Of a stretch of 64,000 nt of DNA, positions 4,110-29,366 are shown piece after piece (position 1 is the first letter of the stretch; each line of letters starts with the position of its first letter). The notes under the pieces were generated by a model that was given only the letters and a program-made list of their open reading frames with translations, searched no databases and was not told the DNA's origin. A program made the position numbers and the translations under genes. The stretch lies in the NCBI GenBank assembly GCA_937975645.1, contig CALJTV010000009.1, positions 24,850-88,849 on the forward strand, read 5' to 3'. The stretch comes from an uncultured Dehalococcoidia bacterium (GTDB taxonomy: Bacteria > Chloroflexota > Dehalococcoidia > GIF9 > UBA5629).

Positions 4110-4110
4110 A

Positions 4111-5896: not shown

Positions 5897-5901
5897 CGCA
5901 T

Positions 5902-6243
5902 CTATTCGACCTCTATGCTTTCGATGAAGCAGCTCTGCCCATTTGTTATCTCCAGATTGGTGCTGCGGCAGCAAGGACATGCCCAGCTAGAGTCTTCAAG
6001 CTTGAAACTGGTCTGGCAATCACGACAGTGCAGCTCGGCAGGCACCGTCTCGAAATCGATGCTCGCATTTTGAGCGATGCTGTCTTTTTTCAAGAAGTCA
6101 AAGTAGAACTGTATGCACTCTCCGACGACCCCAGATAGTTCCCCTATGATGAGTCTAATTTTTGTTATCTGGCTTGCCTGTGCTGCCTTAGCTTCGTTTA
6201 TAGCGATATCAAGTATGTTTTGCGTTATGGCTAGTTCATGCAC
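5902..6243 (-). CDS. hypA: hydrogenase nickel insertion protein HypA
   Basis: 113 aa beginning MHELAITQNIL, with a CRDC...CPCC zinc-finger pair typical of HypA. It is immediately upstream of hypB. Confidence 0.9.
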   Translation of the reverse strand: MHELAITQNILDIAINEAKAAQASQITKIRLIIGELSGVVGECIQFYFDFLKKDSIAQNASIDFETVPAELHCRDCQTSFKLEDSSWACPCCRSTNLEITNGQSCFIESIEVE

Positions 6244-10693: not shown

Positions 10694-13006
10694 ATGGTTC
10701 GGGCAAAGAAACTGGAGTCAGCTAGGATCAGTGCTCGCGGTGTCGTTCAAGGTGTTGGTTTCAGACCTTTTGTATATCAGCTAGCGACTAAATACAATTT
10801 GAAGGGATGGGTCTGCAACACCTCGGAGGATGTGAGCATAGAAATTCAGGGAGAGCGCAGTCGGTTGGAGCAGTTTGTTGCTGAACTTCAAAACAATGCT
10901 CCACCGTTAGCGCGTATAGAGGAGGTGGTGGTGACCTATCGTCCCTGTGACGATTGCACCTATACAACGTTTGAAATACGACAAAGCATTGCTCAGGAGG
11001 GCAAGTACCAGCTTGTTTCGCCTGATATTGCGACTTGTGATGCTTGTTTGCGGGAAGTCTTTGACCCAGAGGACAGACGTTATCGCTATCCATTCACCAA
11101 TTGCACCAATTGTGGTCCGCGTTTTACTATCATAGAAGACATCCCTTATGACCGTCCTAAGACAACCATGCGGGCCTTCCGGATGTGCCCTGATTGTGAG
11201 GCTGAATACCATGACCCTCTAGACCGCCGCTTTCACGCGCAGCCCAACGCCTGTCCTAAGTGCGGACCGAGGCTCGAGCTGCTCGATGGTTGTGGCGAGA
11301 CTGTTGAGGTGACTGATGTGATCTCCGAAGCTTGTAAGCTATTGCTTGCAGGCAAAATCGTGGCGGTGAAGGGTCTTGGCGGGTTTTTGCTGGCTTGTGA
11401 TGCCACCAATGAGCAGGCAGTGGAGCTGCTTCGCCGTAGAAAGAGGCGACCTTTTAAACCTTTCGCGGTGATGGTCGCCAGTGTGGAAGAGGCAAAAAAG
11501 CACTGCTATGTATCCGAAGCCGAGGAGAAAATACTCGTGTCACCCCAGTCGCCTATAGTCTTGATGTGGTGGAAGCCAGAGTCGACCATTTGTCATGCTG
11601 TGGCACCGGACTTGAAATATCTGGGGGTAATGCTCCCTTACACTCCTTTGCACCATCTTCTGATGCGGCAGGTGAGGGTGCCTCTGGTGATGACTAGCGG
11701 CAATATCAGCGAGGAGCCAATAGCCAAGGACAACGATGAGGCTTTAAGGCGGCTTTCCGGGATTGCCGATTATTTTGTGACGCATGACCGGGACATCTAT
11801 GCCAGGTATGATGATAGTGTGGTTATTGTTGAAAGGGGGCAGTTTCAATTGTGCCGCCGGGCACGTGGTTATGCCCCCTATCCTATCCACCTCAAGTTCC
11901 GTGCTAGGCAAGTGCTTGGTTGTGGGGCAGAGGAGAAAAATACCTTCTGCCTGATCAAGGACAATTATGCTTTTGTCAGCCAGCATATCGGTGATATGGA
12001 AAACCTGGAGACCTTAGAACATTTTGAAAGCACGCTGAATCTTTATAAAAAATTGTTTCGTGTTCAACCGGAGGTGGTAGCTTATGACCTCCACCCTGAG
12101 TATCTTCCTACCAAGTATGCCATTGAACTTGGTTCAAAGGAAAAGGGTATTACGCTGGTTCCGGTGCAACACCATCACGCACATATAGTTAGCTGCATGG
12201 TAGACAATGGGTTTGACGAACCAGTCATAGGCGTTGCCTTTGATGGTACAGGGTATGGCAGCGATGGTTATATCTGGGGTGGGGAATTCTTGATAGTGGA
12301 CTACAGAAAATCACAGAGAGTGGGACATCTGGAGTATTTGCCTTTACCTGGTGGGGCAACAGCCATAAAGCGTCCTTATCGCGTCGCCATTGGTTATGCC
12401 ATTAAGCTGCTGGGCGAGGAAGCTCTCGCTGGGTTAGAGATATTGGAGCGGGTTGATCCGGTTGAGGTGGATGTCATCAGACATCAGATTAAGAGCGGAT
12501 TTAATTCCCCGCTAACTTCCAGCATGGGGCGCCTTTTTGACGCGGTTTCTGCCCTTCTAGGGGTCAGAAGCACTGTCGATTACGAGGGACAGGCAGCGGT
12601 TGAGTTAGAGATGGTAGCTTATGATGCTGACAGCCGGTTCAGCAAGGGCTGTTATCCGTTCTCCATAGTTGCGCGGGACGGTATTAATGTGGTCTATCTG
12701 AGTGAGCTTTTTGCGGGGATAGTCGCAGACTTGTATAATAAGCTGGATGTACCGACGATTTCGGCAAAATTTCATACCACCGTGGCAAGGTTAATTTTGG
12801 AAATGTGTCAGCTTATCAGGGAACAGACAGGGATAAAGCATGTGGTGCTGAGCGGCGGGGTTTTTCAAAACCGTTTGCTGCTCAGGAAAGTCATACCTTT
12901 GCTGGAAGGTTTCGGCTTTTCGGTATTGACTCACAGGCAAGTACCTTGCAATGACGGTGGGATTTCGCTGGGTCAAGCGGTGGTAGCTAATTTTAGCGCT
13001 AGTTGA
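10694..13006 (+). CDS. hypF: [NiFe] hydrogenase maturation carbamoyltransferase HypF
   Basis: 770 aa containing an acylphosphatase domain (VQGVGFRPFVY), two Zn-finger CxxC pairs, a YrdC domain and a Kae1-like domain. Confidence 0.95.
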   Translation: MVRAKKLESARISARGVVQGVGFRPFVYQLATKYNLKGWVCNTSEDVSIEIQGERSRLEQFVAELQNNAPPLARIEEVVVTYRPCDDCTYTTFEIRQSIAQEGKYQLVSPDIATCDACLREVFDPEDRRYRYPFTNCTNCGPRFTIIEDIPYDRPKTTMRAFRMCPDCEAEYHDPLDRRFHAQPNACPKCGPRLELLDGCGETVEVTDVISEACKLLLAGKIVAVKGLGGFLLACDATNEQAVELLRRRKRRPFKPFAVMVASVEEAKKHCYVSEAEEKILVSPQSPIVLMWWKPESTICHAVAPDLKYLGVMLPYTPLHHLLMRQVRVPLVMTSGNISEEPIAKDNDEALRRLSGIADYFVTHDRDIYARYDDSVVIVERGQFQLCRRARGYAPYPIHLKFRARQVLGCGAEEKNTFCLIKDNYAFVSQHIGDMENLETLEHFESTLNLYKKLFRVQPEVVAYDLHPEYLPTKYAIELGSKEKGITLVPVQHHHAHIVSCMVDNGFDEPVIGVAFDGTGYGSDGYIWGGEFLIVDYRKSQRVGHLEYLPLPGGATAIKRPYRVAIGYAIKLLGEEALAGLEILERVDPVEVDVIRHQIKSGFNSPLTSSMGRLFDAVSALLGVRSTVDYEGQAAVELEMVAYDADSRFSKGCYPFSIVARDGINVVYLSELFAGIVADLYNKLDVPTISAKFHTTVARLILEMCQLIREQTGIKHVVLSGGVFQNRLLLRKVIPLLEGFGFSVLTHRQVPCNDGGISLGQAVVANFSAS

Positions 13007-13019
13007 CAGGAGAAAAACT

Positions 13020-13274
13020 ATGTGTCTAGCAGTGCCTGTACAAGTTATCGGGGTTTATGGTGACGAAGCTGAAGTTGATATCGGTGGTGTGAGGCGGCGT
13101 GTAAGCATTGTGTTGACACCTGAAGTACAGGTGGGCGACTATGTACTGCTTCACACCGGTTATGCTATAAACGTCATTGATGAAGCCGAGGCACAGGAAA
13201 CGTTGCAGATCCTTGCGGAGATGGCGCAAGTGGATGGGGAACTTCCCGATAACGTGTCGGGAAGCAGGAACTGA
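13020..13274 (+). CDS. hypC: hydrogenase assembly chaperone HypC
   Basis: Begins MCLAVPVQVIG... with the conserved N-terminal MC(L/I)A(V/I)P motif. Confidence 0.85.
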   Translation: MCLAVPVQVIGVYGDEAEVDIGGVRRRVSIVLTPEVQVGDYVLLHTGYAINVIDEAEAQETLQILAEMAQVDGELPDNVSGSRN

Positions 13275-13299
13275 GAACAAGTGTCGTAATGTCGCGCCG

Positions 13300-13983
13300 A
13301 TGTTTTTTGCTCTCTTGATTACTCTTTTACTTGTTGGTTGTATTTCTCCAGCGACGTTTTTAGGTGGTGCTGACGTTGCAGACCATGGGAGTGGAACCGA
13401 TCTTGGCTTTGTGTGTGAAGAGGTCTTGCAACACCTGAAGGCGGCCAAGCAAATAGTCTCCCAGATAAGTAGCTTTACCTGGGCAGAGTTTACCACTTTA
13501 GGTGTCGTTCTGCCTCCACCGGGGGTGTGTGCTACCGGGACGACCTATCTTGCAGAGAAGAATTCTGTACCCATCGGGCTTGGTTGGATGCCGCTTACAG
13601 ACAAACTGTCTTTCCGGGCTACTGCCGATAACCTTGCGGTTGTTTGTGACAATTGTCTTTCCCTAGCTGGAAAGGTGTGCTTAGCTGATAAAGGGCTGCC
13701 TCTAGATGAGAGGCAAGAGCTGTGGTACCAGCTAGATTCGGCACTAACTGGTGCTGTGTATCTTGTTTCAGCTCACAAAGATGTTGTAGCGCACCAGGTC
13801 GTTCCGGAAACGGAGTCCCAGTTTGGGCGCTCTAGCGATGATATCAGAAAGAAATATGGTTATAAATTCAAGGCTTGGTGTGATCAGTACTTTATTTTAC
13901 TCGATGGTCTTCAGTATCACCTTGAGAAAGCAAAACAAACAGCTTCAATCATGAGTAGGGAACAAGATGAAGTTTATCGATGA
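13300..13983 (+). CDS. hypothetical cysteine-rich lipoprotein embedded between hypC and hypD
   Basis: Taken from the frame of ORF 13177..13983, with the start chosen at MFFALLITLLLVGC (signal peptide and lipobox). No recognisable domain. It contains 8 Cys. Its 3' end overlaps the hypD start by 17 nt. The RBS is weak, so the exact start is uncertain. Confidence 0.55.
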   Translation: MFFALLITLLLVGCISPATFLGGADVADHGSGTDLGFVCEEVLQHLKAAKQIVSQISSFTWAEFTTLGVVLPPPGVCATGTTYLAEKNSVPIGLGWMPLTDKLSFRATADNLAVVCDNCLSLAGKVCLADKGLPLDERQELWYQLDSALTGAVYLVSAHKDVVAHQVVPETESQFGRSSDDIRKKYGYKFKAWCDQYFILLDGLQYHLEKAKQTASIMSREQDEVYR

Positions 13984-15049
13984 GTTCCGGAATGTCGATC
14001 TGGGCAAGGGTATAATCGCCAAGATCCACAAGTTGTCTACCAGGCCAGTGGCACTGATGGAATTTTGTGGTGGACATACGGTGTCTATTATGAGGAATGG
14101 GATACGGCAATTGTTACCGCCCGCAGTCCGGCTGCTTTCCGGTCCTGGATGTCCAGTATGTGTTACCGCTAATGTAGATATAGACACCGCGATTGCTTTG
14201 GCTGGCTTGCCCGATGTAATAATTACCACCTTTGGAGATATGTTGAAAGTGCCTGGGAGCTACTCTAGTCTGCAGAAAGCCAGAGCCGATGGCGCAGACA
14301 TAAGGGTTGTCTATTCTACTCAGGATGCTCTGCAGATTGCTCGGGCAAACCCGGCGCATAAAGTTGTCTTTATCGGCATCGGGTTTGAGACCACGGCGCC
14401 GACGATCGCTGCTGCGGTGCTTCAGGCTAAAACTGAGGGGATAAGAAACTTTTATGTCCTCTGCCTGTTGAAATTGTGTCCGCCGGTTATGAAGGCATTG
14501 CTCGATTTAGGTGAGATCAAGCTAGACGGCATAATTTGTCCCGGACACGTGAGCGCTATTATCGGTTCCAAGCCTTACGAGTTCATCCCTAAAGAGTATG
14601 GCGTTGCCTGTGTGGTCTCCGGATTTGAACCGCTTGACATATTACTTTCCGTAGCTATGCTAGTAAATCAGATAGAGATGGGAAAGCCCTGTGTGGAGAT
14701 AGCTTACCGTCGTGGGGTCAAACCGGGAGGTAATGTGAGGGCTTTGCAGCTTATCGATACTGTATTCGAAGTTAGCGAGGCTGACTGGCGTGGCATCGGG
14801 AGCGTTCCACTCAGCGGCTTAAAATTTAGGAAGGAGTTTGAGCAATTCGATGCGCGTTCGCAGTTTACGGTCAGTATCCCGCCTGTTAGGGAAGCAAGAG
14901 GGTGTCTATGTGGTGCCATCTTGCGTGGGGTGAACACGCCAGTCGATTGCGCTCTATTTCGTGAAGTGTGCACGCCTGAAAGCCCTGTTGGTCCGTGTAT
15001 GGTGTCGTCAGAAGGTGCGTGTGCCGCCTACTATCAGTACGGGGTGTGA
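13967..15049 (+). CDS. hypD: hydrogenase maturation Fe-S protein HypD
   Basis: Begins MKFIDEFRN... and contains the CGGHT, GPGCPVCV and C-terminal FCxxC motifs. Confidence 0.9.
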   Translation: MKFIDEFRNVDLGKGIIAKIHKLSTRPVALMEFCGGHTVSIMRNGIRQLLPPAVRLLSGPGCPVCVTANVDIDTAIALAGLPDVIITTFGDMLKVPGSYSSLQKARADGADIRVVYSTQDALQIARANPAHKVVFIGIGFETTAPTIAAAVLQAKTEGIRNFYVLCLLKLCPPVMKALLDLGEIKLDGIICPGHVSAIIGSKPYEFIPKEYGVACVVSGFEPLDILLSVAMLVNQIEMGKPCVEIAYRRGVKPGGNVRALQLIDTVFEVSEADWRGIGSVPLSGLKFRKEFEQFDARSQFTVSIPPVREARGCLCGAILRGVNTPVDCALFREVCTPESPVGPCMVSSEGACAAYYQYGV

Positions 15050-15050: not shown

Positions 15051-16067
15051 ATGAGAGACAGAAACAGGACTATTCTTCTTGCTCACGGCAGTGGAAGCAA
15101 AATCAGCCACGAACTTATAGAGAAAAAACTCGTACCACCTTTAGCCAATCCGATACTCTGCCGGCTTGATGATTCTGCTGTTTTTGAACTTAATGGTTCC
15201 CGTTTTGCTTTTACTACTGATAGCTATGTTGTGAGTCCTATTTTCTTTCCTGGCGGTGACATCGGTCGGCTGGCAGTCTGTGGCACTGTAAACGATTTAG
15301 CTATGAACGGTGCGAGTCCGTTATATCTCAGCCTGTCTTTTATTATCGAGGAGGGGCTTAGCTTTGAGGAGCTTGAACGGGTGCTCGATTCTATCAGAGA
15401 TGCTGCTGTGGAGGCAGGGGTAAGCATAATCACTGGCGATACTAAGGTGGTGAACAGAGGGACTGCCGACAAGTTGTTTATCAACACCTCGGGCATAGGT
15501 GCAGTGATGGATGGGGGGAATATTTCCGGTGCCAATGCCCAAGTCGGGGACAAGATAATTCTTAGCGGGTCTATTGGTGACCATGGTATTGCCGTGATGA
15601 GCCAGCGCGAAGGATTGAGGTTCTCTGTGCCTGTCCAAAGCGATTGCGCTCCATTAAATAAAATGGTAGCAGGAATGCTTGCTGTCTCATCGAAGATACA
15701 CTGTCTCCGCGATCCCACTCGTGGAGGACTTGCTACCACACTTAATGAAATAGCCCAGCAGTCCGACGTTGGCATAAAGATAGAAGAGGAGAAGATAGTT
15801 GTTCATGATGGCGTAAGAGCAGCCTGCGAACTACTTGGTTTCGACCCTCTTTATGTTGCTAACGAGGGTAAGCTGGTCGCCTTTGTTGCTCCCGAGGATG
15901 CAGAGAAGGTTCTGGAGAAGATACGGCAAGACCGCTATGGAGGTGAGGCTGCTATTATTGGGGAGGTGACTGGGGACCATAGGGGCAAGGTGGTGATGAA
16001 GACCAGACTGGGTGCCTCACGTATTGTGGACATGCTCGCTGGGGAGCTCTTGCCCAGAATTTGCTAG
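15051..16067 (+). CDS. hypE: hydrogenase maturation protein HypE (carbamoyl dehydratase)
   Basis: AIR-synthase-like fold ending in the conserved C-terminal PRIC. Start is the ATG at 15051, 1 nt after the hypD stop. Confidence 0.9.
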   Translation: MRDRNRTILLAHGSGSKISHELIEKKLVPPLANPILCRLDDSAVFELNGSRFAFTTDSYVVSPIFFPGGDIGRLAVCGTVNDLAMNGASPLYLSLSFIIEEGLSFEELERVLDSIRDAAVEAGVSIITGDTKVVNRGTADKLFINTSGIGAVMDGGNISGANAQVGDKIILSGSIGDHGIAVMSQREGLRFSVPVQSDCAPLNKMVAGMLAVSSKIHCLRDPTRGGLATTLNEIAQQSDVGIKIEEEKIVVHDGVRAACELLGFDPLYVANEGKLVAFVAPEDAEKVLEKIRQDRYGGEAAIIGEVTGDHRGKVVMKTRLGASRIVDMLAGELLPRIC

Positions 16068-16231
16068 ACTGTCATTTTTTGATACGCAGCTAGTTCGTTT
16101 CTCGGTAGTTGTTGGAGCGGTCATCAACTGTGCCGAGTTGTCCATCTCCGACTATGGTGTTTGCAGTAGCGCCTATAAATGGGTAAAATATGGGCTTGGC
16201 AATCTTGCCTTGTTAAGAGAAAGGAGGCTCC

Positions 16232-17122
16232 ATGGCTAAAGTTAAGGTTCAGGAAGTCCCTGTGGTGTGGATACAAACTGGCAGTTGTACTGGTTGTTCA
16301 GTTTCAGTCTTGAACTCTGTTAGCCCCAGCATCAAAAACGTGCTTATTGACGAAGTTGTTCCCGGAACACATATCAGTCTCAGGTTTCAGGCAACTGTAA
16401 TGGCAGGCCAGGGAGAAGCTGTGCTTAAAGTTCTTGAAGGTACACCGAAGAAGGACAGGGATGGCTATCTTTTGGTGGTTGAGGGTGCTATACCTACAAA
16501 GGACGGCGGGATCTATGGCACTCTAGGGGAGAGAGATGGCAAACCTTTACCGATGGTGGTATGGGTCGAAGAGTTAGTCAAGAATGCTGTGGCGATAGTT
16601 GCTCTAGGCACGTGTGCTGCGTTCGGTGGTATAGCTGCCGGTAGCCCTAATCCCGGTGGCTATTCTGGTGTCGATAGTCTTTTGAAGGAGCGAAGAATCA
16701 ATAAACCACTGATAAACGTGCCAGGCTGTCCGCCTCACCCTGACTGGTTTGTAGGCACCATAGCTGCGATACTGCTCCAAGGTTTGCCTAAACCAGAAGA
16801 CTTGGACGAGTTCAAGCGCCCTAAGGCTTTCTATGGGAAGTTGATCCACGAAAATTGTCCGCGGCGGGCTTATTTTGACGAGGGAAAATTTGCCAGAAAG
16901 TTCGGTGAGCCGGGGTGCCTTAATGAACTTGGTTGTAAGGGGCCAGTGACCTATGCCGATTGTCCTCTCAGACTGTGGAATCACGGGACCAACTGGTGTA
17001 TCGGTGCCGGATCGCCTTGCATTGGCTGCTGTGAACCGGGATTCCCGGACCTGATGGCACCGTTCTATCAGAAACTTACTGATGCCGCATTACCTGCCAT
17101 AGGTGTGGAGCAGAAGAAGTAG
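16232..17122 (+). CDS. [NiFe] hydrogenase small subunit, no Tat signal (cytoplasmic uptake-type)
   Basis: MAKVKVQEVPVVWIQTGSCTGCSVS corresponds to the mature N-terminus of small subunits, with no RRxFxK twin-arginine leader. The C-terminal region carries ligands for medial and distal clusters (CPRRAYFDEG...CIGCCEP). Confidence 0.85.
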   Translation: MAKVKVQEVPVVWIQTGSCTGCSVSVLNSVSPSIKNVLIDEVVPGTHISLRFQATVMAGQGEAVLKVLEGTPKKDRDGYLLVVEGAIPTKDGGIYGTLGERDGKPLPMVVWVEELVKNAVAIVALGTCAAFGGIAAGSPNPGGYSGVDSLLKERRINKPLINVPGCPPHPDWFVGTIAAILLQGLPKPEDLDEFKRPKAFYGKLIHENCPRRAYFDEGKFARKFGEPGCLNELGCKGPVTYADCPLRLWNHGTNWCIGAGSPCIGCCEPGFPDLMAPFYQKLTDAALPAIGVEQKK

Positions 17123-17153
17123 CACATTTGAGAAAGATGCAGGAGGGTTAGAA

Positions 17154-18713
17154 TTGAGCAAGATTACAGTAGATCCGGTCACTCGTATTGAAGGGCATCT
17201 TAAAATAGAGGTTGTTGTGGAGAAAGGCGTGGTCAAGGACGCTTATAGTTCGGGGATGATGTTTCGTGGCATTGAGCTGATTTTGCGAGGAAGAGACCCT
17301 CGTGATGCTCAGAGGTATACTCAGCGAATTTGCGGAGTCTGTCCTACCAGCCACTCCATAGCAGCTGCGTTGAACCTAGACAGTGCTTTTGGTCTCGCTG
17401 ACAAGATACCTGACAACGGGCGTATTGTGCGCAATCTCATTCTCGGAGCAGCCCACATTGCTGACCATATCTTGCACTTCTATCATCTGGCTGCGCTCGA
17501 CTATGTCGATGTGACCAAGGTGGCTAAGTACGATGGTAATGACCCTGCGCTCAACTCGGTAAAGCGGTTTATTGAGCGTGGGGAGCTGGCACCGTTTGTA
17601 CCTCGATATGAGGGAGACTATCGCCTGAGCGACAAGATGAACATAGAGGCTACAGCTCACTATGTGAAGGCGCTGGAGATGAGACGCAAAGCTCAGGAGA
17701 TGCTAACTATTTTTGGGGGCAAGATGCCTCACAATATGGCTGTGGTTCCCGGTGGTGTTACCGAAATTGTTACTGTAGACAAGATAGCCTCTTTCTTATG
17801 GAGGCTCAATGAGCTCAGGGAATTTATCGATAACGTCTATATACCTGATGTTCTTGCTGTAGCCGAGGCTTATTCTGACTACTTTGAGATCGGTACAGGG
17901 TGTGGTAACCTGCTCTCTTATGGGCTGTGGGATCTGGAGGGAAATAACCCCGATTACACCAAACGGAAGAGGTTGATCAAGCAGGGTACGGTATCTATGG
18001 ATCTAAAGGTGGGCAGTCTGGATCCCAATAAGATCGCCGAGTATGTGAAGTACTCGTGGTATGCAGATTCAAGCACAGGGAAGCATCCCACTCAAGGTGT
18101 GACCGACCCGCAGTATGGTAAAAAGGGAGCCTATTCTTGGGTAAAAGCACCGCGGTACGATGGCAAAGTTTATGAGGTAGGACCGCTGGCTGGCATAGCT
18201 GTTACCTATGCAAGCGGCGAGCCAGCAGTAAAGAACCTCGTTGATTCTGTGCTGTCGAAATTTAAAGCGAGCCCGAAGGCGCTATTTTCAGTGCTGGGCA
18301 GGCATGCCGCCCGCGCCTTGATAACTAAATACGTTGCTGATAGTATGCCCGAGTGGCTGCTTCAGCTTAAACCTGGTGAGCCAGCTTATATAGACTATCA
18401 GATACCCGATCAGGCTCTTGGTATGGGGCTCACAGATGCTGCTAGGGGTGCTCTGGGGCATTGGGTGGAGATAAAAGATAAGAAAATTGCCAACTACCAG
18501 TGTGTGGTGCCCAGCACATGGAACATGAGCCCGAGGGATGACCGGGACCAGCCCGGTCCTGTGGAGCAGGCTCTCATTGGCACCAAGATAAAGGACGAAA
18601 AAAATCCGTTTGAAATAGGGCGCATTGTGCGCTCTTTCGATCCCTGCTTAGCTTGCGCTATCCATTTGATTAGACCGAAGGGGGAAATTGTTGGGACGTT
18701 CAGGACCGGTTAG
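17154..18713 (+). CDS. [NiFe] hydrogenase large subunit
   Basis: Contains the L1 motif RICGVCPTSH and the C-terminal L2 motif DPCLACAIH followed by a short extension (protease-processed). The TTG start at 17154 is 6 nt after the AGGAGGG RBS. Confidence 0.9.
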   Translation: MSKITVDPVTRIEGHLKIEVVVEKGVVKDAYSSGMMFRGIELILRGRDPRDAQRYTQRICGVCPTSHSIAAALNLDSAFGLADKIPDNGRIVRNLILGAAHIADHILHFYHLAALDYVDVTKVAKYDGNDPALNSVKRFIERGELAPFVPRYEGDYRLSDKMNIEATAHYVKALEMRRKAQEMLTIFGGKMPHNMAVVPGGVTEIVTVDKIASFLWRLNELREFIDNVYIPDVLAVAEAYSDYFEIGTGCGNLLSYGLWDLEGNNPDYTKRKRLIKQGTVSMDLKVGSLDPNKIAEYVKYSWYADSSTGKHPTQGVTDPQYGKKGAYSWVKAPRYDGKVYEVGPLAGIAVTYASGEPAVKNLVDSVLSKFKASPKALFSVLGRHAARALITKYVADSMPEWLLQLKPGEPAYIDYQIPDQALGMGLTDAARGALGHWVEIKDKKIANYQCVVPSTWNMSPRDDRDQPGPVEQALIGTKIKDEKNPFEIGRIVRSFDPCLACAIHLIRPKGEIVGTFRTG

Positions 18714-19215
18714 TAACAACGAAGGTTTTGCCCGTTGTCCAGAGATCGCCGTGGTTGGCGTCGGTAATGTACTGTTGAGCGACGATGGCGCAGGTGTACA
18801 TTTAGTCCACAGACTAGCTGAAAGGATCGACGATAGCGATGTTGCCATTGTCGATGCTGGCACTGTACCCGAGCTGTTTTTGCTAGCAGATGAGAGGATT
18901 AAGAAATTGATTTTTGTTGACGCTGCTAGGGGAGGGGGACTACCTGGCTCCATATATCGTTTCACTTTGGACGATCTTGAGGCGTCATCTGGGCTACCGG
19001 TTTCGTTGCATGACCTCACTTTGTTGGATAATCTGAGGTTATCGGAGCTTTTGGGTAGGAGACCGGAGTCTGTAATTATCATAGGTATAGAGCCGGCGAC
19101 TACCGATTTTGGTATACAGCTTTCTCTCGAGGTTGAGGAGGCATTGCCTAAAGCAATAGAGTTGGTGCTCAAGGAGATCGAAGAGTTTTCAAAACAGTCT
19201 ACGGAGGTAAAGTGA
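18688..19215 (+). CDS. hydrogenase maturation endopeptidase (HyaD/HybD/HupD family)
   Basis: Contains IAVVGVGNVLLSDDGAGVHLV, the conserved block of the hydrogenase C-terminal proteases. It overlaps the large-subunit gene. The exact start is uncertain. Confidence 0.8.
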   Translation: MLGRSGPVSNNEGFARCPEIAVVGVGNVLLSDDGAGVHLVHRLAERIDDSDVAIVDAGTVPELFLLADERIKKLIFVDAARGGGLPGSIYRFTLDDLEASSGLPVSLHDLTLLDNLRLSELLGRRPESVIIIGIEPATTDFGIQLSLEVEEALPKAIELVLKEIEEFSKQSTEVK

Positions 19216-19216
19216 C

Positions 19217-19900
19217 ATGATAGTGTCTCAGTTAAAGCCGCTACAGGAGATCCTTGGCTATTTGAATGGGGAAAGAAGCGTTTTCATAGTGGGTTGCAAG
19301 GGGTGTGCTGAAGTATGCCATACGGGCGATGAGGCACAAGTATTGGACATGAAGCAAAAGCTAGAACAGGAGGGTAAGGCCGTCACTGGGTATTGTGTGA
19401 TCGACTTTCTCTGTGACAAAGCGCTGGTAAAGATGCGGTTAATGGCTCACCAAAGCGAGATACAGGCTGCGGACTCTCTGTTAGTTATGACTTGTGGGAT
19501 TGGGGTACAGGCTGTAGCTGCAGTGGTCAATAAGCTAGTTCACCCAGCGGCCAACACTATCAATATGGGGGGGAGTAGGGGTGAGTGGCGTGGTGCCGAA
19601 CGTTGTCGTGAATGTGGTGATTGTGTTCTGGATATGACTGCTGGTATATGTCCTTTGACTGCATGTACTAAGGGGCTGCTAAACGGGCCGTGTGGCGGTG
19701 CCAAAGATGGCAGGTGCGAGGTCGAACCGGAGGTCAGGGAATGTGGCTGGCACCTTATTTATGAGAGACTGAATAAGCTTGGCAGACTGGACAAAATGAC
19801 CGGTCGCCCGGTGCTGAAAGACTACAGGAAAATGATGCCGCCAAAAGAACTGAGGTCGACGTTAATGTGGGCGCTGGAACAGCAGGAGACCAAAGTCTAG
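19217..19900 (+). CDS. metV: methylene-THF reductase small, Cys-rich subunit (MetV-like, MTHFR C-terminal-like domain)
   Basis: Cys clusters (CKGCAEVCH; CRECGDCV...CPLTACTKGLLNGPCGG) resemble acetogen MetV. It is directly followed by metF and starts 2 nt after the hydrogenase protease stop. Confidence 0.7.
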   Translation: MIVSQLKPLQEILGYLNGERSVFIVGCKGCAEVCHTGDEAQVLDMKQKLEQEGKAVTGYCVIDFLCDKALVKMRLMAHQSEIQAADSLLVMTCGIGVQAVAAVVNKLVHPAANTINMGGSRGEWRGAERCRECGDCVLDMTAGICPLTACTKGLLNGPCGGAKDGRCEVEPEVRECGWHLIYERLNKLGRLDKMTGRPVLKDYRKMMPPKELRSTLMWALEQQETKV

Positions 19901-19920
19901 CAACCTGTTAAAGGAGGTAA

Positions 19921-20793
19921 ATGTTGATGACTCTACGGGAAAAGCTCGGCAGTGGTAAATTTGTGGTGACTGCGGAAGTCGGTCCAGCTAAGGGGGTGGA
20001 CACCCATGAGTTTCTAGAGAATGTGGAGTTGCTGAAAAACCGTGTGGATGCAATCAATTGTACTGACCAGCAGAGTGCGGTGATGCGACTTGGTTCGCTA
20101 GCAGGTTGCTACCTTATCAGACAGAAGGGGGGCGAGCCCATCTTTCAGATGACATGTCGCGACCGGAATCGCATTGCCTTACAATCTGACTTGCTAAATG
20201 CCTACGTTTTTGGGATAGAGAACGTCCTGTGTCTCACGGGCGATTTTGTTACACTGGGTGACCATCCGGACGCGAAACCTGTGTTTGACCTCGACTCTGT
20301 ATCACTGCTTTATGCTGCTAAGCAGTTAGAGCAGGGGAAGGACTTGGCGGGAAAAGATCTCACTGGTGCCCCCAGGTTCTTCTTGGGTGCCTGCGTGACG
20401 CCTGGTGCTGAACCGTTGGAGCCGCAGCTCTTGAAAATGGAAAGGAAAGTCAAGGCAGGTGCCAAGTTCTTCCAGACCCAAGCGGTCTATGAACCTAAAA
20501 AGTTTGAGACTTTTATGAAGGAGGCAAGGAAATTTGGGGTACCTGTGCTTGTGGGCATAGTGTTACTGCGGTCAGCAGCGATGGCACGGTTCATGAACAA
20601 AAATGTTGCTGGGATACACGTGCCTGATGAGCTGATTGCAGAAATGGACAGAGCAGAGAATAAGCTGCAGAAGGGTGTTGAGATAGCTGCTCGATTGATC
20701 AGAGAGATGAAGGATATGTGTCAAGGTGTGCATATTATGGCGATCGGGCTAGAGTCGAAAGTCCCTGCTATTCTGGATGCAGCTGGGCTGTAG
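19921..20793 (+). CDS. metF: 5,10-methylenetetrahydrofolate reductase
   Basis: 290 aa MTHFR TIM-barrel (VVTAEVGP...INCTDQQSAVMR...CLTGDF). Confidence 0.85.
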   Translation: MLMTLREKLGSGKFVVTAEVGPAKGVDTHEFLENVELLKNRVDAINCTDQQSAVMRLGSLAGCYLIRQKGGEPIFQMTCRDRNRIALQSDLLNAYVFGIENVLCLTGDFVTLGDHPDAKPVFDLDSVSLLYAAKQLEQGKDLAGKDLTGAPRFFLGACVTPGAEPLEPQLLKMERKVKAGAKFFQTQAVYEPKKFETFMKEARKFGVPVLVGIVLLRSAAMARFMNKNVAGIHVPDELIAEMDRAENKLQKGVEIAARLIREMKDMCQGVHIMAIGLESKVPAILDAAGL

Positions 20794-20829
20794 AGGTGCC
20801 AGATATACTAGGCAACGGTGCAGTGACTG

Positions 20830-21609
20830 GTGCGTATCGTCCGTTTTTGCGTGGCAGGGAAAACGAACTATGGTATTCTTCTCGGTGCTGAAGTGCGGCG
20901 TTTGCGTCGTGACCCGTTCCTTCAGTTTGCATATTCAGACAAGATTTCTTACCTAGATAGTGTTTCCTACCGCTTGGACGATATTCGGTTGCTAGCACCT
21001 TGTACACCCTCGAAGATCGTTTGTCTCGGGCTTAATTATCGGGGACATATCGAGGAGATGGGGTTAGCTGTACCTTCTGTGCCTCTTATCTTTTTGAAGC
21101 CCTCCACTGCCGTTATCGGGCCTAACGAAAGCATTGTTTTGCCGTATGGCTGCCGCCGTGTTGATTATGAGGGTGAGCTCGCTGTTGTTATCGGCAAAAG
21201 AGCAAAGAATGTGCCAGCGGCGAAGGCAGCCGAATATATCCTGGGCTATACCTGCTTTAATGATGTCTCTGACCGTGAGGCGCAGACAGTGGATGGGCAG
21301 TGGACTAGAGCGAAGGGTTATGATACCTTTGCACCCTTGGGTCCATGGATAGAGACGGGTATTTCACCCCACAACCTCAGGTTGGAGACATATGTTAACG
21401 GTGAGCTTAGGCAGTCAGCTTCCACTAGGGAGCTGGTTTTCGGCGTACCAGAACTGGTGAGTTTTATCTCAGACATCATGACACTCCTTCCCGGGGATGT
21501 TATTGCCACAGGTACACCTGCTGGTGTAGGATCTCTCAAACCAGGGGATGTGGTGCAGGTCAAGATCGAAGGTATTGGGGCGTTGACAAACCCAGTTGTC
21601 AACGCTTGA
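20830..21609 (+). CDS. fumarylacetoacetate hydrolase (FAH) family protein
   Basis: FAH-fold signature (VCLGLNYRGH...YEGELAVVIGK...FNDVSDRE...GDVIATGTPAGVG). Confidence 0.8.
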   Translation: MRIVRFCVAGKTNYGILLGAEVRRLRRDPFLQFAYSDKISYLDSVSYRLDDIRLLAPCTPSKIVCLGLNYRGHIEEMGLAVPSVPLIFLKPSTAVIGPNESIVLPYGCRRVDYEGELAVVIGKRAKNVPAAKAAEYILGYTCFNDVSDREAQTVDGQWTRAKGYDTFAPLGPWIETGISPHNLRLETYVNGELRQSASTRELVFGVPELVSFISDIMTLLPGDVIATGTPAGVGSLKPGDVVQVKIEGIGALTNPVVNA

Positions 21610-21636
21610 GTGCTCTGCTGATACGAATGACCTGTG

Positions 21637-21679
21637 TGGTGTCAAGTTTGGTGTCAAGCCATGTGGTAAGTGTGGTAAG
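21637..21679. repeat. clustered short direct repeats upstream of the orphan regulator gene (TGGTGTCAAG x2, period 12; GTGGTAAG x2, period 9)
   Basis: Read directly from the sequence at 21637-21658 and 21663-21679. They lie about 120-165 bp upstream of the CDS starting at 21801. Confidence 0.4.
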
Positions 21680-21800
21680 TATAGGTTTCCGGCTCGAGAA
21701 TGGGGGAGCTTTTGACTTATTTACTATTGAGATGTTAGACTTGCGCTAGGGAACATTTATTGGAGAGTAGCGTAGTAGGGGGCTGTGGGACAGGAGAGCA

Positions 21801-22478
21801 ATGCGCGAGATAAAAGTTTTACTGGCTGGTGGCAAGGAGATTTTTCGTGAAGGGCTGACGAGGCTGCTAAAGGAGCAACCGCATATCAGCGTAGTCTCAC
21901 AGTGCAGCAGCAGGCAGGCGCCGACAAAGGTCAAAGAGACCAAGCCTGACGTGATCATTATAGATACTAACCCTGTTGTAGCGGATGCCTTGATGGCTAC
22001 CAGAAAGATCAGTCGGCTATACCCCAAGACGAAGATAGCTGTTCTCACCGAGGAGGGTAATGAAGGAGAACTTCTGTTCGTTATGGAGCAAGGTGCTCAA
22101 GGATATTTGACTAAGGGTATTTCGGTGGAAGACCTGATCAAGTGTATTGAGCTTATAGCCCGTGGTGAAATTGTGATCACTCCTTTAGCTTCTGCAAGCC
22201 TCCCTAAGGATTTAATTTCTCGGCGTAATGCCAAGGGACGTAAAGATACAGAAGGCAAGCCTTGTCTTTCTAATAGAGAGTTGGAGATTGTAGGTCTGGT
22301 AGCAAACGGGTTGACGAACAAAGAAATAGCCCAAAAGTTGTCCATAACTGACAATACGTCCAAAGTCCATATTAAAAACATCCTTAGCAAACTGCAGTTG
22401 AGGAATCGGCAGCATCTAGCTGCTTATGCTGTGCAGCATGGTCTGGCTACTACATTAAGCGGATCAGACTCCGAATAG
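21801..22478 (+). CDS. LuxR/NarL-family regulator with an atypical receiver domain (acidic pocket DD replaced by GG)
   Basis: C-terminal LuxR HTH (LSNRELEIVGLVANGLTNKEIAQKLSITDNTSKVHIKNILSKL). The N-terminal REC-like fold retains the phospho-acceptor position (IIIDTNP), T (IAVLT) and K (YLTKG), but the N-terminal acidic pair is GG (VLLAGGKE). No kinase gene is adjacent. Confidence 0.8.
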   Translation: MREIKVLLAGGKEIFREGLTRLLKEQPHISVVSQCSSRQAPTKVKETKPDVIIIDTNPVVADALMATRKISRLYPKTKIAVLTEEGNEGELLFVMEQGAQGYLTKGISVEDLIKCIELIARGEIVITPLASASLPKDLISRRNAKGRKDTEGKPCLSNRELEIVGLVANGLTNKEIAQKLSITDNTSKVHIKNILSKLQLRNRQHLAAYAVQHGLATTLSGSDSE

Positions 22479-22632
22479 ATTCAAGCTACCTCTGTACGGG
22501 ATAAGTTTTTGGCAGCGCCGTATGCTAAATTCTCGGTATCCTATCCGAGTATAATTACGGTTGACTGTCATATGATGTAATGCTACAATACGTACTCGGT
22601 TTGCTTTGAGTAATGCGACAAAGGGGGCTCCT

Positions 22633-23511
22633 ATGGTTCTGATCGGTGAAAGTATACACATAATTTCTCGGCGTGTCAGCGAGGCTGTTAGAGACAGGAA
22701 TGCCAGTGTGATTCAAGAGTTAGCTAAGGCGCAGGCTGAGGCGGGAGCTGATTACATAGATCTAAACCTCGGACCAGCGAAGAAAGACCCAGTAGGGATG
22801 ACGGAGTGGTTGGTGAACGTAGTTCAAGAGGTCACTAATTTGCCATTATCTATTGATACACTGAACCCTATAGCGATGGAAGCTGGTTTGAGACTTTGTA
22901 AAAAGCGTCCTTTGCTGAATTCAGCTTCTGGAAGGACTGACAGCAAGGCTGAGATGCTACCCCTGGCTAAAAAATACAATTGCGATGTGGTCATATCGGT
23001 GCTTACTGATAAAGGTTGCCCGCCCGATGTAGATTCCAGAACTGAGAGCATTATGGAGACGGTGGCTTACGCGAATGAGCTTGGAATCCCCAATGAAGAC
23101 ATCTGGGTTGATCCTATTATTCTACCTGTAAGCGCCGACCAGAAGCAGGTGCGAGAAGCACTTGAGTTTATCAAGATACTCCCTGACCTGTTGCCGGGTG
23201 TGAAATCCACGGTAGGTTTGTCGAACGTGTCAAATGGTACCCCAGAGGAGCTCAGGGGTATTCTCAACCGGACTTATATGGTCATGCTGGGGCGGTATGG
23301 ACTTTATTCTGCGATTGCTGACACGTTAGATCATGAGCTGGTCAAGTTGAACAGAGGCGAGCTACCGCACATAGTTGACCTCATTTATAAGGCTATGGAC
23401 AGCGAGCCAATAGACATGTCCTCTCTCTCCAAGCAGGAACAGGACTATGTCAAGACTACCAGGGTATTGATGGGAGAGACACTCTACTCCCATGCCTGGT
23501 TGGAAGCATAA
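22633..23511 (+). CDS. acsE: methyltetrahydrofolate:corrinoid/iron-sulfur protein methyltransferase (AcsE, pterin-binding)
   Basis: Pterin-binding barrel (MVLIGESIHIISRR...GADYIDLNLGP...) like Moorella AcsE. ATG at 22633 follows an AAGGGGG RBS. Confidence 0.85.
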   Translation: MVLIGESIHIISRRVSEAVRDRNASVIQELAKAQAEAGADYIDLNLGPAKKDPVGMTEWLVNVVQEVTNLPLSIDTLNPIAMEAGLRLCKKRPLLNSASGRTDSKAEMLPLAKKYNCDVVISVLTDKGCPPDVDSRTESIMETVAYANELGIPNEDIWVDPIILPVSADQKQVREALEFIKILPDLLPGVKSTVGLSNVSNGTPEELRGILNRTYMVMLGRYGLYSAIADTLDHELVKLNRGELPHIVDLIYKAMDSEPIDMSSLSKQEQDYVKTTRVLMGETLYSHAWLEA

Positions 23512-23533
23512 ATCTTTGAAAAGGAGCTGAGCC

Positions 23534-24439
23534 ATGGAATATAAGGCACCGGTAGAAAGTTATTCTGGAAGGGTGGTGGAGGTAGTTATTGGGAGGGGCG
23601 AAAAGGCACTCAAGATCGGTGGCGAAAATGTTCTACCATTTCATTTTTTTGAGGGGGCGATTGCCAACCCTCCCAGATTAGCCCTGGAGGTGCTCGATAG
23701 TGTTCCGGTGGGCTGGTCGCAATGGGAAGTCAACCCTTATAAAGATGTTGTTTCTGAGCCGGTTCAGTGGGCAAACAGAGCACTAGAACTCGGGGCTGAC
23801 CTCGTCTGCTTGCGTCTAGTGGGCACCGACCCAACAGGTCAGAATGTACCTGGGGATAAGGCTGCTGAGCTGGTGAAAAGTGTGGCTTCAGCAATACGGT
23901 CACCACTCATTGTGTATGGCTCTGGAGACGAGGTCAAGGATGTCGAGGTGCTGACAAAGGTAGCAGAAGTGTGTGCAGGCGAAGCCCTGCTTCTGGGGCC
24001 AGTGGTAAAGGAAAACTATGAGCCTATAAGCAAAGCAGCTCTGGATTATGGTCACTGCATAATTGCGCAGAGTCCACTTGATATAAACCTGGAAAAAGAA
24101 CTGAATGTAAAGCTCCTGAAATCGTTTCCTAGAGAGCGCATAGTGATCGACCCCTTGAGTTCAGCCCTCGGCTACGGTATGGAGTACAGTTTCACCATTA
24201 TGGAGAGGACAAAGCACATCGGCATCATGTTCGGTGATAGCACCATGCAGATGCCCATCATAGCTGACCTTTCTAGTGAGTGTGCCAAGACCAAACAAGC
24301 GAAAGAGAGTGAGAAACAGGGGTTACTCTGGGAGCTCGTCACAGCTATAAGCCTCTTGCTTGCTGGCGCCAATATCGTAGTACTCAGGTTGCCACAGAGC
24401 TTAAAAATATTGAGAGAGGTCCTTGAAGGTAAGTTATAA
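23534..24439 (+). CDS. acsD: corrinoid iron-sulfur protein small subunit (AcsD/CdhD)
   Basis: 301-aa TIM-barrel-like CFeSP small subunit with conserved blocks (LVGTDPTGQ...IVYGSGD...IDPLSSALGYG). Confidence 0.85.
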   Translation: MEYKAPVESYSGRVVEVVIGRGEKALKIGGENVLPFHFFEGAIANPPRLALEVLDSVPVGWSQWEVNPYKDVVSEPVQWANRALELGADLVCLRLVGTDPTGQNVPGDKAAELVKSVASAIRSPLIVYGSGDEVKDVEVLTKVAEVCAGEALLLGPVVKENYEPISKAALDYGHCIIAQSPLDINLEKELNVKLLKSFPRERIVIDPLSSALGYGMEYSFTIMERTKHIGIMFGDSTMQMPIIADLSSECAKTKQAKESEKQGLLWELVTAISLLLAGANIVVLRLPQSLKILREVLEGKL

Positions 24440-24506
24440 AATTGATAATCATTTCTGATTCTGCTAGAATATAATCAGCCCAACCACTGTGGAAAGGAGC
24501 CTCAGC

Positions 24507-26813: not shown

Positions 26814-26834
26814 GTGGAGTTCGAGAGGTAAGTA

Positions 26835-27536
26835 GTGCGTATTTTGATTGCAATCCAGGGGCATTACGGTCAGCGGATTGCCGATAATATTAAAAAGTAT
26901 GCGCCGGCAGACTGGAAGATGTTTGTCCATACCTTGCCGGCTGAGCTACCAAGTATTATTGATGACGCAGAGCAGTTCTTGCCTAAGGAGCTACCTCAGG
27001 TTGATCTGCTGATATCTTTGGGAGAACATCCTGGCGTTGCCCAGATGATCCCAGACCTAGTTATTAGAAGCGGCGCCAAGGCAGTCATCGCACCTGCGGA
27101 CAATCGTGCCTGGTTGCCCCCGGGGTTAGCCAAACAGATAAAGAAAAAACTGGTTTCCCTGGGAACAGAGATGGTGTATCCGGTGCCGTTTTGTACGTTA
27201 ACAGAAAGGGATGCTCAGAGTCCCTACATCCGTGAGTTTGCCAGGTATTTTGGTAGACCGGTGGTGGAGATTGAGATGGATAGGGATAGGGTGAGGCATA
27301 TGAGTGTAGTCAGGGGGGCTCCCTGTGGCTGTACGCCGTATGTAACGGAGGGGTTGGTCGGGGTCTGGGAAAGAGACGCAGTAGAGAAAGCGGGGCTTTT
27401 ACACCATCAATATCCCTGCTTGGCGACGATGGCCATGGATCAGGAATTTGGTGATACTTTAATGCACCGTGCTGGTTTAATGACCAAGCTGGCGGTTGAG
27501 AATGCCTTGAAAGCTGCCAAGGTAGCACAATTATAG
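26835..27536 (+). CDS. conserved hypothetical protein embedded between cdhA and cdhB (possibly DUF166-like)
   Basis: 233 aa. GTG start at 26835 after a GAGAGG RBS. Contains CGC and PC motifs (RGAPCGCTPY, HHQYPCLA). It is tightly packed in the operon (21 nt after cdhA, 11 nt before cdhB). The family assignment is tentative and from memory. Confidence 0.6.
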   Translation: MRILIAIQGHYGQRIADNIKKYAPADWKMFVHTLPAELPSIIDDAEQFLPKELPQVDLLISLGEHPGVAQMIPDLVIRSGAKAVIAPADNRAWLPPGLAKQIKKKLVSLGTEMVYPVPFCTLTERDAQSPYIREFARYFGRPVVEIEMDRDRVRHMSVVRGAPCGCTPYVTEGLVGVWERDAVEKAGLLHHQYPCLATMAMDQEFGDTLMHRAGLMTKLAVENALKAAKVAQL

Positions 27537-27547
27537 TAAGGAGGCTT

Positions 27548-28105
27548 GTGATGACTATGACTTTGCCGTATCACCGGGTCAATGTATTGACTGGCACCAA
27601 GGCAGCCAGGATTATCGAGGACCCGAGTGAGTATGCCCATTTGATCAAGCGCGCCAGCAGGCCGCTGCTTGTCCTCGGACCCAGAATTTTGACCATGTCT
27701 CTCGGTGAAAGACTGCTTGCGGAGTATGCAGTGGAAATTGCCAAGGCTGCAGACATACCTATCTGTGCTACGGCTCATACCCAGAAGAAATTACTGGAGC
27801 TGGGTGTACAGCCAGCCAGCAACTATGACCTTATTGAGATAATCAATCATCTTAAAGACCCTGAATGGCGCGGGGTCAAGAAAGAGGGTAACCACGATCT
27901 TGTCATATTCCTCGGTGTTAGGACCGATCTTGGTGAGCAGGGGCTATCCACATTGAAACATTTTGCGCCACACCTCAAAACGATGACGTTATGCAAGTAC
28001 TACTATCCAAATGCCAGTTACTCCCTTCCTAACTTCCGCAAGGACGAGCAATGGAAGGAGTTCTTGGACAAATTGATAGAAAATCTCAAAACGAAGGAGG
28101 CGTAA
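27548..28105 (+). CDS. cdhB: acetyl-CoA decarbonylase/synthase complex epsilon subunit
   Basis: 185 aa with size and position typical of CdhB. A strong AAGGAGG RBS precedes the start. It is directly followed by cdhC, whose start (28108) is 2 nt after the cdhB stop. Confidence 0.75.
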   Translation: MMTMTLPYHRVNVLTGTKAARIIEDPSEYAHLIKRASRPLLVLGPRILTMSLGERLLAEYAVEIAKAADIPICATAHTQKKLLELGVQPASNYDLIEIINHLKDPEWRGVKKEGNHDLVIFLGVRTDLGEQGLSTLKHFAPHLKTMTLCKYYYPNASYSLPNFRKDEQWKEFLDKLIENLKTKEA

Positions 28106-28107
28106 AG

Positions 28108-29334: not shown

Positions 29335-29366
29335 TGTGTAAGTTTACGTAACACTAGGAGGTAGAT

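Follow-up and report, generated by a model that had tools for sequence, protein, structure and literature searches.

A candidate soluble H2:methylene-tetrahydrofolate oxidoreductase in uncultured Dehalococcoidia, built from a group 1-derived [NiFe] hydrogenase and MetVF

We analyzed a 64,000-nucleotide stretch of contig CALJTV010000009.1 (positions 24,850 to 88,849; hereafter the window) from an uncultured Dehalococcoidia bacterium, in which the genes of an apparently cytoplasmic [NiFe] hydrogenase stand directly before metV and metF, encoding the two subunits of a methylene-tetrahydrofolate (methylene-THF) reductase. With moderate confidence, we read this five-gene unit (16232-20793) as encoding a soluble cytoplasmic H2:methylene-THF oxidoreductase, in which hydrogenase and MetVF would form a direct complex and MetV would replace HybA as the acceptor of electrons from the distal cluster of the hydrogenase. 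The unit would probably represent a fifth type of MetVF reductase, with a group 1-derived [NiFe] hydrogenase as its electron-input module.

All five genes lie on the forward strand. They encode a [NiFe] hydrogenase small subunit of 296 amino acids (16232-17122; PF01058 and PF14720), a large subunit of 519 amino acids with a TTG start (17154-18713; PF00374, 548 bits; NCBIfam equivalog NF033181, 735 bits against a cutoff of 600), a hydrogenase maturation endopeptidase of the HyaD/HybD/HycI family (TTG 18688 or GTG 18751 to 19215; PF01750; TIGR00072, 132 bits), MetV, the Fe-S/Zn subunit of a MetVF-type methylene-THF reductase (19217-19900; PF12225), and MetF, its flavin-binding catalytic subunit (19921-20793; PF02219 over the full length). 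Pfam and NCBIfam thus agreed with the identities and coordinates given in an earlier note on this DNA, and the single strand and tight spacing from which it had proposed one operon were confirmed. The gaps between the genes are, in order, 31 nt, -26 or +37 nt, 1 nt, and 20 nt. For the large subunit gene, a GGAGGG ribosome-binding site precedes the TTG at 17154, while the mechanical open reading frame (ORF) begins at 17103; the protease gene overlaps it by 26 nt if started at TTG 18688, with GTG 18751 as the alternative. At the junction of protease gene and metV, the stop codon TGA (19213-19215) is followed by a single C and the ATG at 19217, with GGAGG 9 nt 5' of the metV start, so that the gap is 1 nt and not 2 nt as previously noted. 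No terminator-like site was seen between any of the five genes, the junction of protease gene and metV included; those found all lay within coding sequence and were rarer than in shuffled sequence (8 versus 12.2). A unit split by a terminator or an internal promoter was rejected, since neither was seen between the genes. Transcription may start at a weak sigma-70-like promoter match (TTTGCA-18-TAAAAT, 9/12, a consensus match only) at 16160-16189 (+), within the 164 nt that separate hypE from the small subunit gene.

Judged by its sequence, the enzyme is a catalytic group 1-type hydrogenase, closest to the Desulfovibrio [NiFe] and [NiFeSe] enzymes and neither Mvh-like nor a sensor, an assignment based on PDB and NCBIfam scores, the cluster ligands, the Cys in the L2 motif, and the C-terminal extension of the large subunit. 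In the PDB, the large subunit best matched group 1 enzymes from the periplasm of Desulfovibrio and Desulfomicrobium (1cc1, 1frf, 5jsu; 450-468 bits), all top matches belonging to groups 1a, 1b, 1c, 1d, or 1e; for the small subunit, 1cc1_S and 4kl8_S, both from [NiFeSe] enzymes, came closest (~260 bits). Weaker scores were obtained for group 2a (~208 bits), group 1h (155 bits), and the Mvh, Frh, and NAD-linked enzymes (~95-113 bits), the last of which covered the N-terminus only (for MvhA/VhuA, ~118 residues at ~105 bits; for the Mvh entries of the PDB, ~106-113 bits). The NCBIfam model for VhuA also matched only the N-terminus, with 101 bits against a cutoff of 800. These scores ruled out an Mvh-type (group 3c) hydrogenase, the class expected from the pairing of MetVF with Hdr/MvhD, and no FlpD/MvhD-like ORF was found in the 16232-20793 unit. 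The classification of the large subunit, proposed before as a check, therefore placed it in group 1, together with catalytic enzymes.

Both motifs reported in the earlier note, RICGVCPTSH (L1) and DPCLACAIH (L2), are present in the large subunit. The latter is followed by a C-terminal extension of 15 amino acids and, directly downstream, by the protease gene, a maturation feature of group 1 enzymes that appears to be retained here. An [NiFeSe] enzyme, suggested by the name of the NCBIfam model, was ruled out: unlike [NiFeSe] enzymes, all 80 sequences compared (see below) carry Cys and not Sec in the L2 motif.

Alignment of the small subunit to 1cc1_S showed that no cluster ligand is missing, whether proximal, distal (His and three Cys), or medial, where four Cys are present and the fourth ("NWC") is as in [NiFeSe]/1a enzymes. 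The three Fe-S clusters with the 4-Cys medial cluster, the L1 and L2 motifs, the C-terminal extension, and the specific protease are all shared with the periplasmic group 1 (Hyb-type) enzymes. Unlike these, however, the enzyme encoded here has neither a twin-arginine (Tat) signal nor an anchor, and metV-metF stand in place of genes for a cytochrome or HybA/HybB. The alignment with the mature Desulfomicrobium baculatum chain (1cc1_S) starts with residue 7 of the small subunit opposite residue 6, and the signal region is absent, since the match to NCBIfam NF045520 begins at profile position 34. The start codon at 16232 is the first past an in-frame stop, and no RRxF motif was found upstream of it in any of the three frames. 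The missing Tat signal pointed out previously was thus borne out, and a signal masked by a frameshift or a wrong start was ruled out on the same grounds, here and likewise in ~65 homologues. At its other end, the small subunit terminates 17 residues past the conserved core, without the C-terminal hydrophobic helix of its nearest exported relatives; its hydropathy maxima are buried core strands, and the absence of an anchor was therefore read from the alignment. No genes for cytochrome b, HybA/HybB, or another quinone-linking partner were found within 16232-22478. A Tat signal is not universal in group 1, as group 1h enzymes also lack one.

Relatives of the large subunit were collected in a scan of one genome per species, which gave 80 loci (designated by L numbers) with 63-93% identity; the window proteins were mapped onto these by tblastn, and the relationships of the large subunits were taken from a neighbor-joining tree. 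metV lay at most 1.5 kb away in 62 of the 74 copies that had at least 1.5 kb of sequence downstream. These 62 loci made up exactly one clade and included every Tat-less locus with this much room downstream (62/62). Throughout the clade, the small subunit lacked a Tat signal and a stop stood a few codons 5' of the start. Recurrence in all 62 related loci that have room downstream puts the adjacency of hydrogenase and metV far from chance. The clade covers at least four phyla, spanning Dehalococcoidia, Desulfobacterota (members labeled Syntrophaceae, Deltaproteobacteria, or Thermodesulfobacteriota; L036, L050, L056, L059, L065, and L067), Nitrospirota (Thermodesulfovibrionales and "Nitrospira"; L031 and L038), and Armatimonadota (L061). 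The closest relatives (93% identity) came from Dehalococcoidia/Chloroflexota metagenome-assembled genomes, and the family is common in metagenomes: the best 120 database matches were all at least 79% identical to the large subunit of the window, and none came from a cultured organism. Close relatives originate from the deep water of Lake Tanganyika, the sulfidic zone of the Black Sea, peat, and aquifers, and CP070642.1 and DAISKD010000001.1 are among the complete or near-complete genomes with the module. Conservation of synteny in related genomes had been suggested as a check in the earlier note. This conserved adjacency, its restriction to a single clade, and the placement of the hydrogenase between folD and metV in Desulfobacterota and Nitrospirota strongly support a functional link between hydrogenase and MetVF.

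The surroundings of the shared core vary between lineages. A large group of Dehalococcoidia has the order cdhA-cdhB-acsB-acsC-nuoE-nuoF-cooC-small subunit-large subunit-protease-metV-metF. In the Desulfobacterota (fhs-folD-small subunit-large subunit-metV-metF) and Nitrospirota (folD-small subunit-large subunit-metV-metF), metV begins ~30-45 nt after the large subunit gene, with no protease gene between them, and the hydrogenase genes are part of the methyl-branch operon. Overall, a hydrogenase enclosed by fhs-folD-…-metV-metF was seen in three phyla. The two Nitrospirota large subunits (L031, 2400-3899; L038, 2871-4370) have a 4-residue extension past the L2 His (…AVHCIKM), with no protease gene in the locus; all other clade members keep the 15-residue extension. 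In one Chloroflexota locus (L027, 8250-10700, +), small and large subunits form one ORF of 818 amino acids, joined in frame by 9 nt without a stop codon, through either natural fusion or faulty assembly.

The sister clade comprised nine loci from Planctomycetota, Anaerolineae, and others, with 63-68% identity. In the seven of these nine with an identified small subunit gene, its product had an RR(D/E/S)F(L/V) signal and a C-terminal anchor, a Gly/Ala-rich helix. The gene order there is large subunit, protease, small subunit, followed in the two annotated loci (L071 and L080) by genes for a HybA-like, Tat-dependent 4Fe-4S protein (Fer4_11) and a membrane subunit of the NrfD type. metVF was absent from all nine loci. 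Because the sister clade is exported, anchored, HybA/NrfD-linked, and without metVF, the simplest history would be that a quinone-linked respiratory uptake hydrogenase shed both topogenic signals and swapped HybA/NrfD for MetV/MetF. The sequences clearly point to a cytoplasmic offshoot of the group 1 hydrogenases that originated by this exchange of partners. The loop between the ligands of the distal cluster is near-invariant in the metVF-linked clade (PRRAYFDEGKFAKKFG; PRRAY[FY]DEGKFA[KR]KFG; net charge +1) and more basic than in periplasmic relatives, being acidic in the sister clade and in 1cc1_S. We take the altered loop as a weak hint of a different docking partner.

Second copies of metVF, distinct from the hydrogenase-linked copy, were present in some loci. 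They stand beside hdrC-hdrB in L036, L050, L056, and L059, and beside NuoG-N-terminal-like, nuoE, and nuoF genes in L023 and L024, and each MetVF therefore lies next to a presumptive donor module of its own. Between the small subunit and MetV, matrices of pairwise distances correlated with r = 0.90, compared with 0.93 for large and small subunits and 0.73 for MetF, the lower value being in line with an exchange of MetF subtypes.

Four types of methylene-THF reductase have been distinguished in acetogens (PMC8760232): MetF alone (type I), MetVF (type II), MetVF-RnfC2 (type III, as in Acetobacterium woodii), and MetVF-HdrCBA-MvhD (type IV, as MetVF-HdrABC-MvhD in Moorella thermoacetica). The pair in the window resembles types II to IV in its metV-metF arrangement, in the conserved Cys of MetV (C27, C30, C66, C130, C133, C136, C145, C150, C159, C167, and C176), in its acetogen-type MetF, and in that the neighbor of metV would be the electron-input module. 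It differs from types III and IV in that this module would be a [NiFe] hydrogenase and not RnfC2 (NADH) or Hdr/MvhD, and neither rnfC2, hdrCBA, nor mvhD was found in the 16232-20793 unit. The metVF genes are flanked by the hydrogenase protease gene and a gene of the fumarylacetoacetate-hydrolase family. MetF is of the acetogen/YitJ-like and not the NAD(P)H type (fadh2), with 250 bits for the C-terminal half of NF006396, only 63 bits against a cutoff of 294 for TIGR00676, and a distant match to the Thermus methylene-THF reductase 1v93. With metV (PF12225) next to a metF (PF02219) of the non-NAD(P)H type and the Cys conserved, the pair appears to belong to the MetVF type. For MetV, no solved structure was found by sequence.

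A HMMER scan with MetV over 1.84 billion representative proteins gave 1,479 relatives, and among the best 150 of these the long proteins were examined. They were fusions with MetF, RnfC-type NADH modules, a histidine kinase, a Rieske domain, or a ferredoxin domain. The MetV-RnfC fusions confirm, in the Rosetta-stone sense, the characterized type III enzyme, and the neighbor of metV can therefore be its electron-input module. One representative protein (P0142) is a MetV-histidine kinase fusion, and histidine kinase genes repeatedly lie between metV and metF or right after metF (L027, 11858-12997; L023, 14780-16096; L036, 7525-9492); MetV-like Fe-S domains may thus serve as redox-sensing inputs too. 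In one Dehalococcoidia subgroup (L035, L042, L046, L052, L053, and L062), two tandem divergent metV genes, ~40-55% identical to the MetV of the window, stand downstream of the protease gene and before a single metF.

In the proposed enzyme, the Ni-Fe site of the large subunit would cleave H2, and the three [4Fe-4S] clusters of the small subunit would relay the electrons. The distal cluster would hand them to the Fe-S clusters of MetV, which would take the place of the ancestral HybA-type ferredoxin subunit, and they would then reach the flavin of MetF and finally methylene-THF. With midpoint potentials (E0') of -414 mV for H+/H2 and -200 mV for methylene-/methyl-THF (quoted in PMC9586279), we calculated a standard free energy of ~-41 kJ/mol for methylene-THF reduction by H2. 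At 1 Pa H2, the hydrogen couple would be at ~-266 mV and the reaction would still yield ~-13 kJ/mol; equilibrium would be reached at ~0.006 Pa H2 with equal THF species. With such favorable energetics, H2 would be usable at levels where the reduction of NAD+ or ferredoxin by H2 is impossible. The module could thereby drive the most electropositive pathway step with trace H2, at no cost in NADH or ferredoxin, and the reaction could also run in reverse where H2 is very low and the methyl/methylene ratio high. We infer both the physical complex and the net direction of catalysis; the direction is left open, with reduction as the more likely one.

Several points weigh against a direct complex of hydrogenase and MetVF. 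All relatives come from metagenome-assembled genomes. The distance correlations would fit inheritance as a unit, but they are also expected from plain co-inheritance and are no proof of contact. No hydrogenase-MetV fusion was found among the best 150 of the 1,479 MetV relatives, and a Rosetta-stone fusion of this kind was rejected as a line of support. A docking domain specific to the MetV of this clade was also rejected, its Cys set and length being the same as in other MetVs. The absent fusion and the ordinary MetV appear neutral to mildly negative for a tight complex. The MetF partner varies, with 39-95% identity to the MetF of the window, and in some loci a histidine kinase gene separates metV from metF. 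The NuoEF-like genes of the downstream Wood-Ljungdahl supercluster (see below) are a possible additional redox partner. Finally, a direct, uncoupled reaction conserves no energy at the methylene-THF step.

Given that the direction of the reaction is left open, the same module might also operate in reverse, in an oxidative Wood-Ljungdahl pathway of syntrophic acetate or methyl oxidation in which MetVF would oxidize methyl-THF and the hydrogenase would release H2. The hosts include Syntrophaceae, other Desulfobacterota, and sediment Dehalococcoidia, and the closest solved relatives of the hydrogenase are the [NiFeSe]/[NiFe] enzymes of sulfate reducers, which are good H2 producers. The calculated equilibrium of ~0.006 Pa H2 would also rise ~100-fold at a methyl/methylene ratio of 100:1, nearing in situ H2. 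However, methyl-THF oxidation to H2 is strongly endergonic in most conditions, and syntrophic acetate oxidizers have been proposed to require reverse electron transport at this step (PMC10689502). Furthermore, the Dehalococcoidia module is embedded with CODH/ACS genes (for carbon monoxide dehydrogenase and acetyl-CoA synthase), cooC, and hyp genes, as for H2-fed CO2 fixation. We regard operation in reverse as a minority possibility, though one to be reckoned with.

It is unlikely, in our view, that there is no stable complex and that the genes are merely co-regulated, with the hydrogenase reducing a soluble carrier (ferredoxin, flavodoxin, or a small redox protein) that is then oxidized by a type II-like MetVF. 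Purified type II MetVF accepts reduced ferredoxin in vitro (PMC8760232), and both the missing hydrogenase-MetV fusion and the MetV without a special domain, described above, would fit such an arrangement. Nevertheless, no carrier gene is conserved in the module, the adjacency of metV and hydrogenase is invariant while all other neighbors vary, and the ancestral enzyme passes electrons to a bound Fe-S subunit and not to a free carrier. Ferredoxin as the in vivo donor has, moreover, been argued to be energetically untenable (PMC8760232).

A larger electron-bifurcating complex, in which methylene-THF reduction by H2 would drive the reduction of ferredoxin, could consist of the four proteins alone or together with NuoEF-like proteins. 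Energy economy would favor a coupling of this kind (PMC8760232), and the same-strand supercluster holds NuoE-like and NuoF-like genes (the NuoF with extra 2Fe-2S and 2x[4Fe-4S] domains), which in L032-type loci lie directly upstream of the hydrogenase. If true, bifurcation would give uncultured Dehalococcoidia and Desulfobacterota an energy-neutral source of low-potential reductant for CODH/ACS from trace H2, and would answer how MetVF couples to energy conservation. It is nonetheless very unlikely, as the loci of Desulfobacterota, Nitrospirota, and Armatimonadota have no NuoEF genes, nuoEF or hdr genes adjoin the second metVF copy where one is present, and the core module lacks HdrA or any other known bifurcating flavoprotein.

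That the hydrogenase is no electron donor and acts instead as a regulatory H2 sensor for the expression of Wood-Ljungdahl genes can hardly be credited: there is a response regulator in the window (21801-22478) and there are kinase genes beside metV in several loci, but the sequence groups with catalytic group 1 enzymes, the kinase of the Desulfobacterota loci follows metF and does not adjoin the hydrogenase genes, and the large subunit has the C-terminal extension and dedicated protease that sensory hydrogenases lack.

Compared with known systems, the direct H2:methylene-THF oxidoreductase that we favor would be new in its wiring. [quoted passage not shown] The novelty therefore lies in the soluble direct wiring and not in the reaction. 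The S. ovata route was assigned to a cytochrome b-linked hydrogenase in the periplasm, quinone, and a membrane-attached HdrCBA-MvhD-MetVF, and is energy-conserving (PMC9430772). In both cases H2 reduces methylene-THF (here as predicted from the genes), with a [NiFe] uptake-type hydrogenase as the entry and MetVF as the terminal reductase. Unlike the S. ovata chain, the module described here would be all cytoplasmic, and its unit contains no cytochrome b, quinone module, or Hdr/MvhD genes; it looks like that chain short-circuited in soluble form. The MvhAGD-HdrABC complex of methanogens (group 3c) is similar in concept only, as a cytoplasmic [NiFe] hydrogenase wired to a dedicated reductase; it differs in that its large subunit matches that of the window at the N-terminus only and in its MvhD and bifurcating flavoprotein HdrA, neither of which is encoded here. 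In the hydrogen-dependent CO2 reductase (HDCR), an [FeFe] hydrogenase is coupled directly to the first step of the Wood-Ljungdahl pathway, CO2 to formate. The present module would share with HDCR the concept of H2 as the immediate reductant of one Wood-Ljungdahl step, although with a [NiFe] enzyme and at the last step of the methyl branch. The HDCR of A. woodii is named in PMC10472528. In genomic work on Chloroflexi from marine and subsurface sites, Acetothermia, Actinobacteria, and others, hdr-mvhD-metVF or rnfC-linked metVF have been described and the hydrogenases handled separately. In the full-text-searchable literature, subscription-only papers being outside this scope, we found no account of metVF joined to a hydrogenase of the group 1 type.

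Around the unit, the window holds a full set of hydrogenase maturation genes. hypF (10694-13006), hypC (13020-13274), hypD (13967-15049), and hypE (15051-16067), all on the forward strand and identified by Pfam, lie directly upstream of the hydrogenase and are syntenic with L001-L004. With hypB (5234-5980, -; PF02492) and hypA (5902-6243, -; assigned from its translation only, which has a HypA-like MHELAIT… N-terminus and two CxxC pairs), the hypABCDEF set is complete. An ORF between hypC and hypD (13177-13983, +) had no Pfam match and contains an internal Met followed by a lipobox-like MFFALLITLLLVGC. The hypC-hypD gap is of similar size in L001-L004, and hypC abuts hypD in L006, L016, and L020. 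On the other side, 36 nt after metF, lies the fumarylacetoacetate-hydrolase family gene (20830-21609, +), which is kept only in the closest relatives (L001-L016) and has no apparent link to C1 metabolism; a second paralogue is found at 41434-42450 (-). The response regulator gene that follows (21801-22478, +) is of the LuxR type.

Further downstream, a Wood-Ljungdahl supercluster (22606-34050, +; Pfam and NCBIfam) comprises acsE, a cdhD-like gene, cdhA, a DUF166 gene, cdhB, cdhC/acsB, acsC, NuoE-like and NuoF-like genes, and cooC; in L032-type loci, genes of this supercluster are found directly upstream of the hydrogenase. The CODH/ACS (24489-29334, +) is of the archaeal five-subunit type, with a Fer4 domain inserted in cdhA, the epsilon subunit cdhB, and cdhC. 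The DUF166 gene (DfsP-like, NF041372) lies between cdhA and cdhB, and a DUF3786 gene (34040-34501) follows cooC. After acsC come the NuoE-like gene (30722-31207, +) and the NuoF-like gene (31254-33134, +; 626 amino acids). The NuoF-like product is built like bifurcating modules of the HydB/HydC type, its 2Fe-2S domain being N-terminal and its 2x[4Fe-4S] domain C-terminal. Many loci of Dehalococcoidia conserve both genes together with those for CODH/ACS; the pair has no obvious redox partner and stands upstream of the hydrogenase in L032, L033, L034, L044, L051, L052, L060, and L069. The earlier statement that no other electron acceptor gene is present thus holds within the unit but not for the window, which has these flavoprotein genes (30722-33134) 10 kb downstream of the unit in the same orientation.

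At the start of the window, a T-box leader (RF00230, 106 bits; 2021-2282, -) lies 5' of an anthranilate synthase component I-like gene (535-1986, -) named from its translation only. A molybdenum cofactor (Moco)/tungsten-cofactor riboswitch (RF01055, 80 bits; 2403-2523, +) overlaps the start of the mechanical ORF 2391-3374, and the real start of this ORF is therefore placed downstream of the riboswitch. The ORF encodes an ABC transporter periplasmic binding protein, probably for molybdate or tungstate, within a transporter region at 2391-5202 (+).

The electron donor of MetVF is a long-standing problem of acetogen bioenergetics. For the MetVF type, the physiological donor is unresolved, reduced ferredoxin working in vitro but leading to a negative ATP balance (PMC8760232). 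In the module described here, the donor appears to be attached to the reductase. The module is probably an undescribed enzyme that would let H2 drive, or be released by, the last reduction of the methyl branch. Abundant uncultured Dehalococcoidia and other anaerobes of sediments and groundwater could use it to feed trace H2 into the Wood-Ljungdahl pathway, or to vent H2 from it, which bears on how H2 thresholds and carbon fixation are modeled in anoxic habitats.

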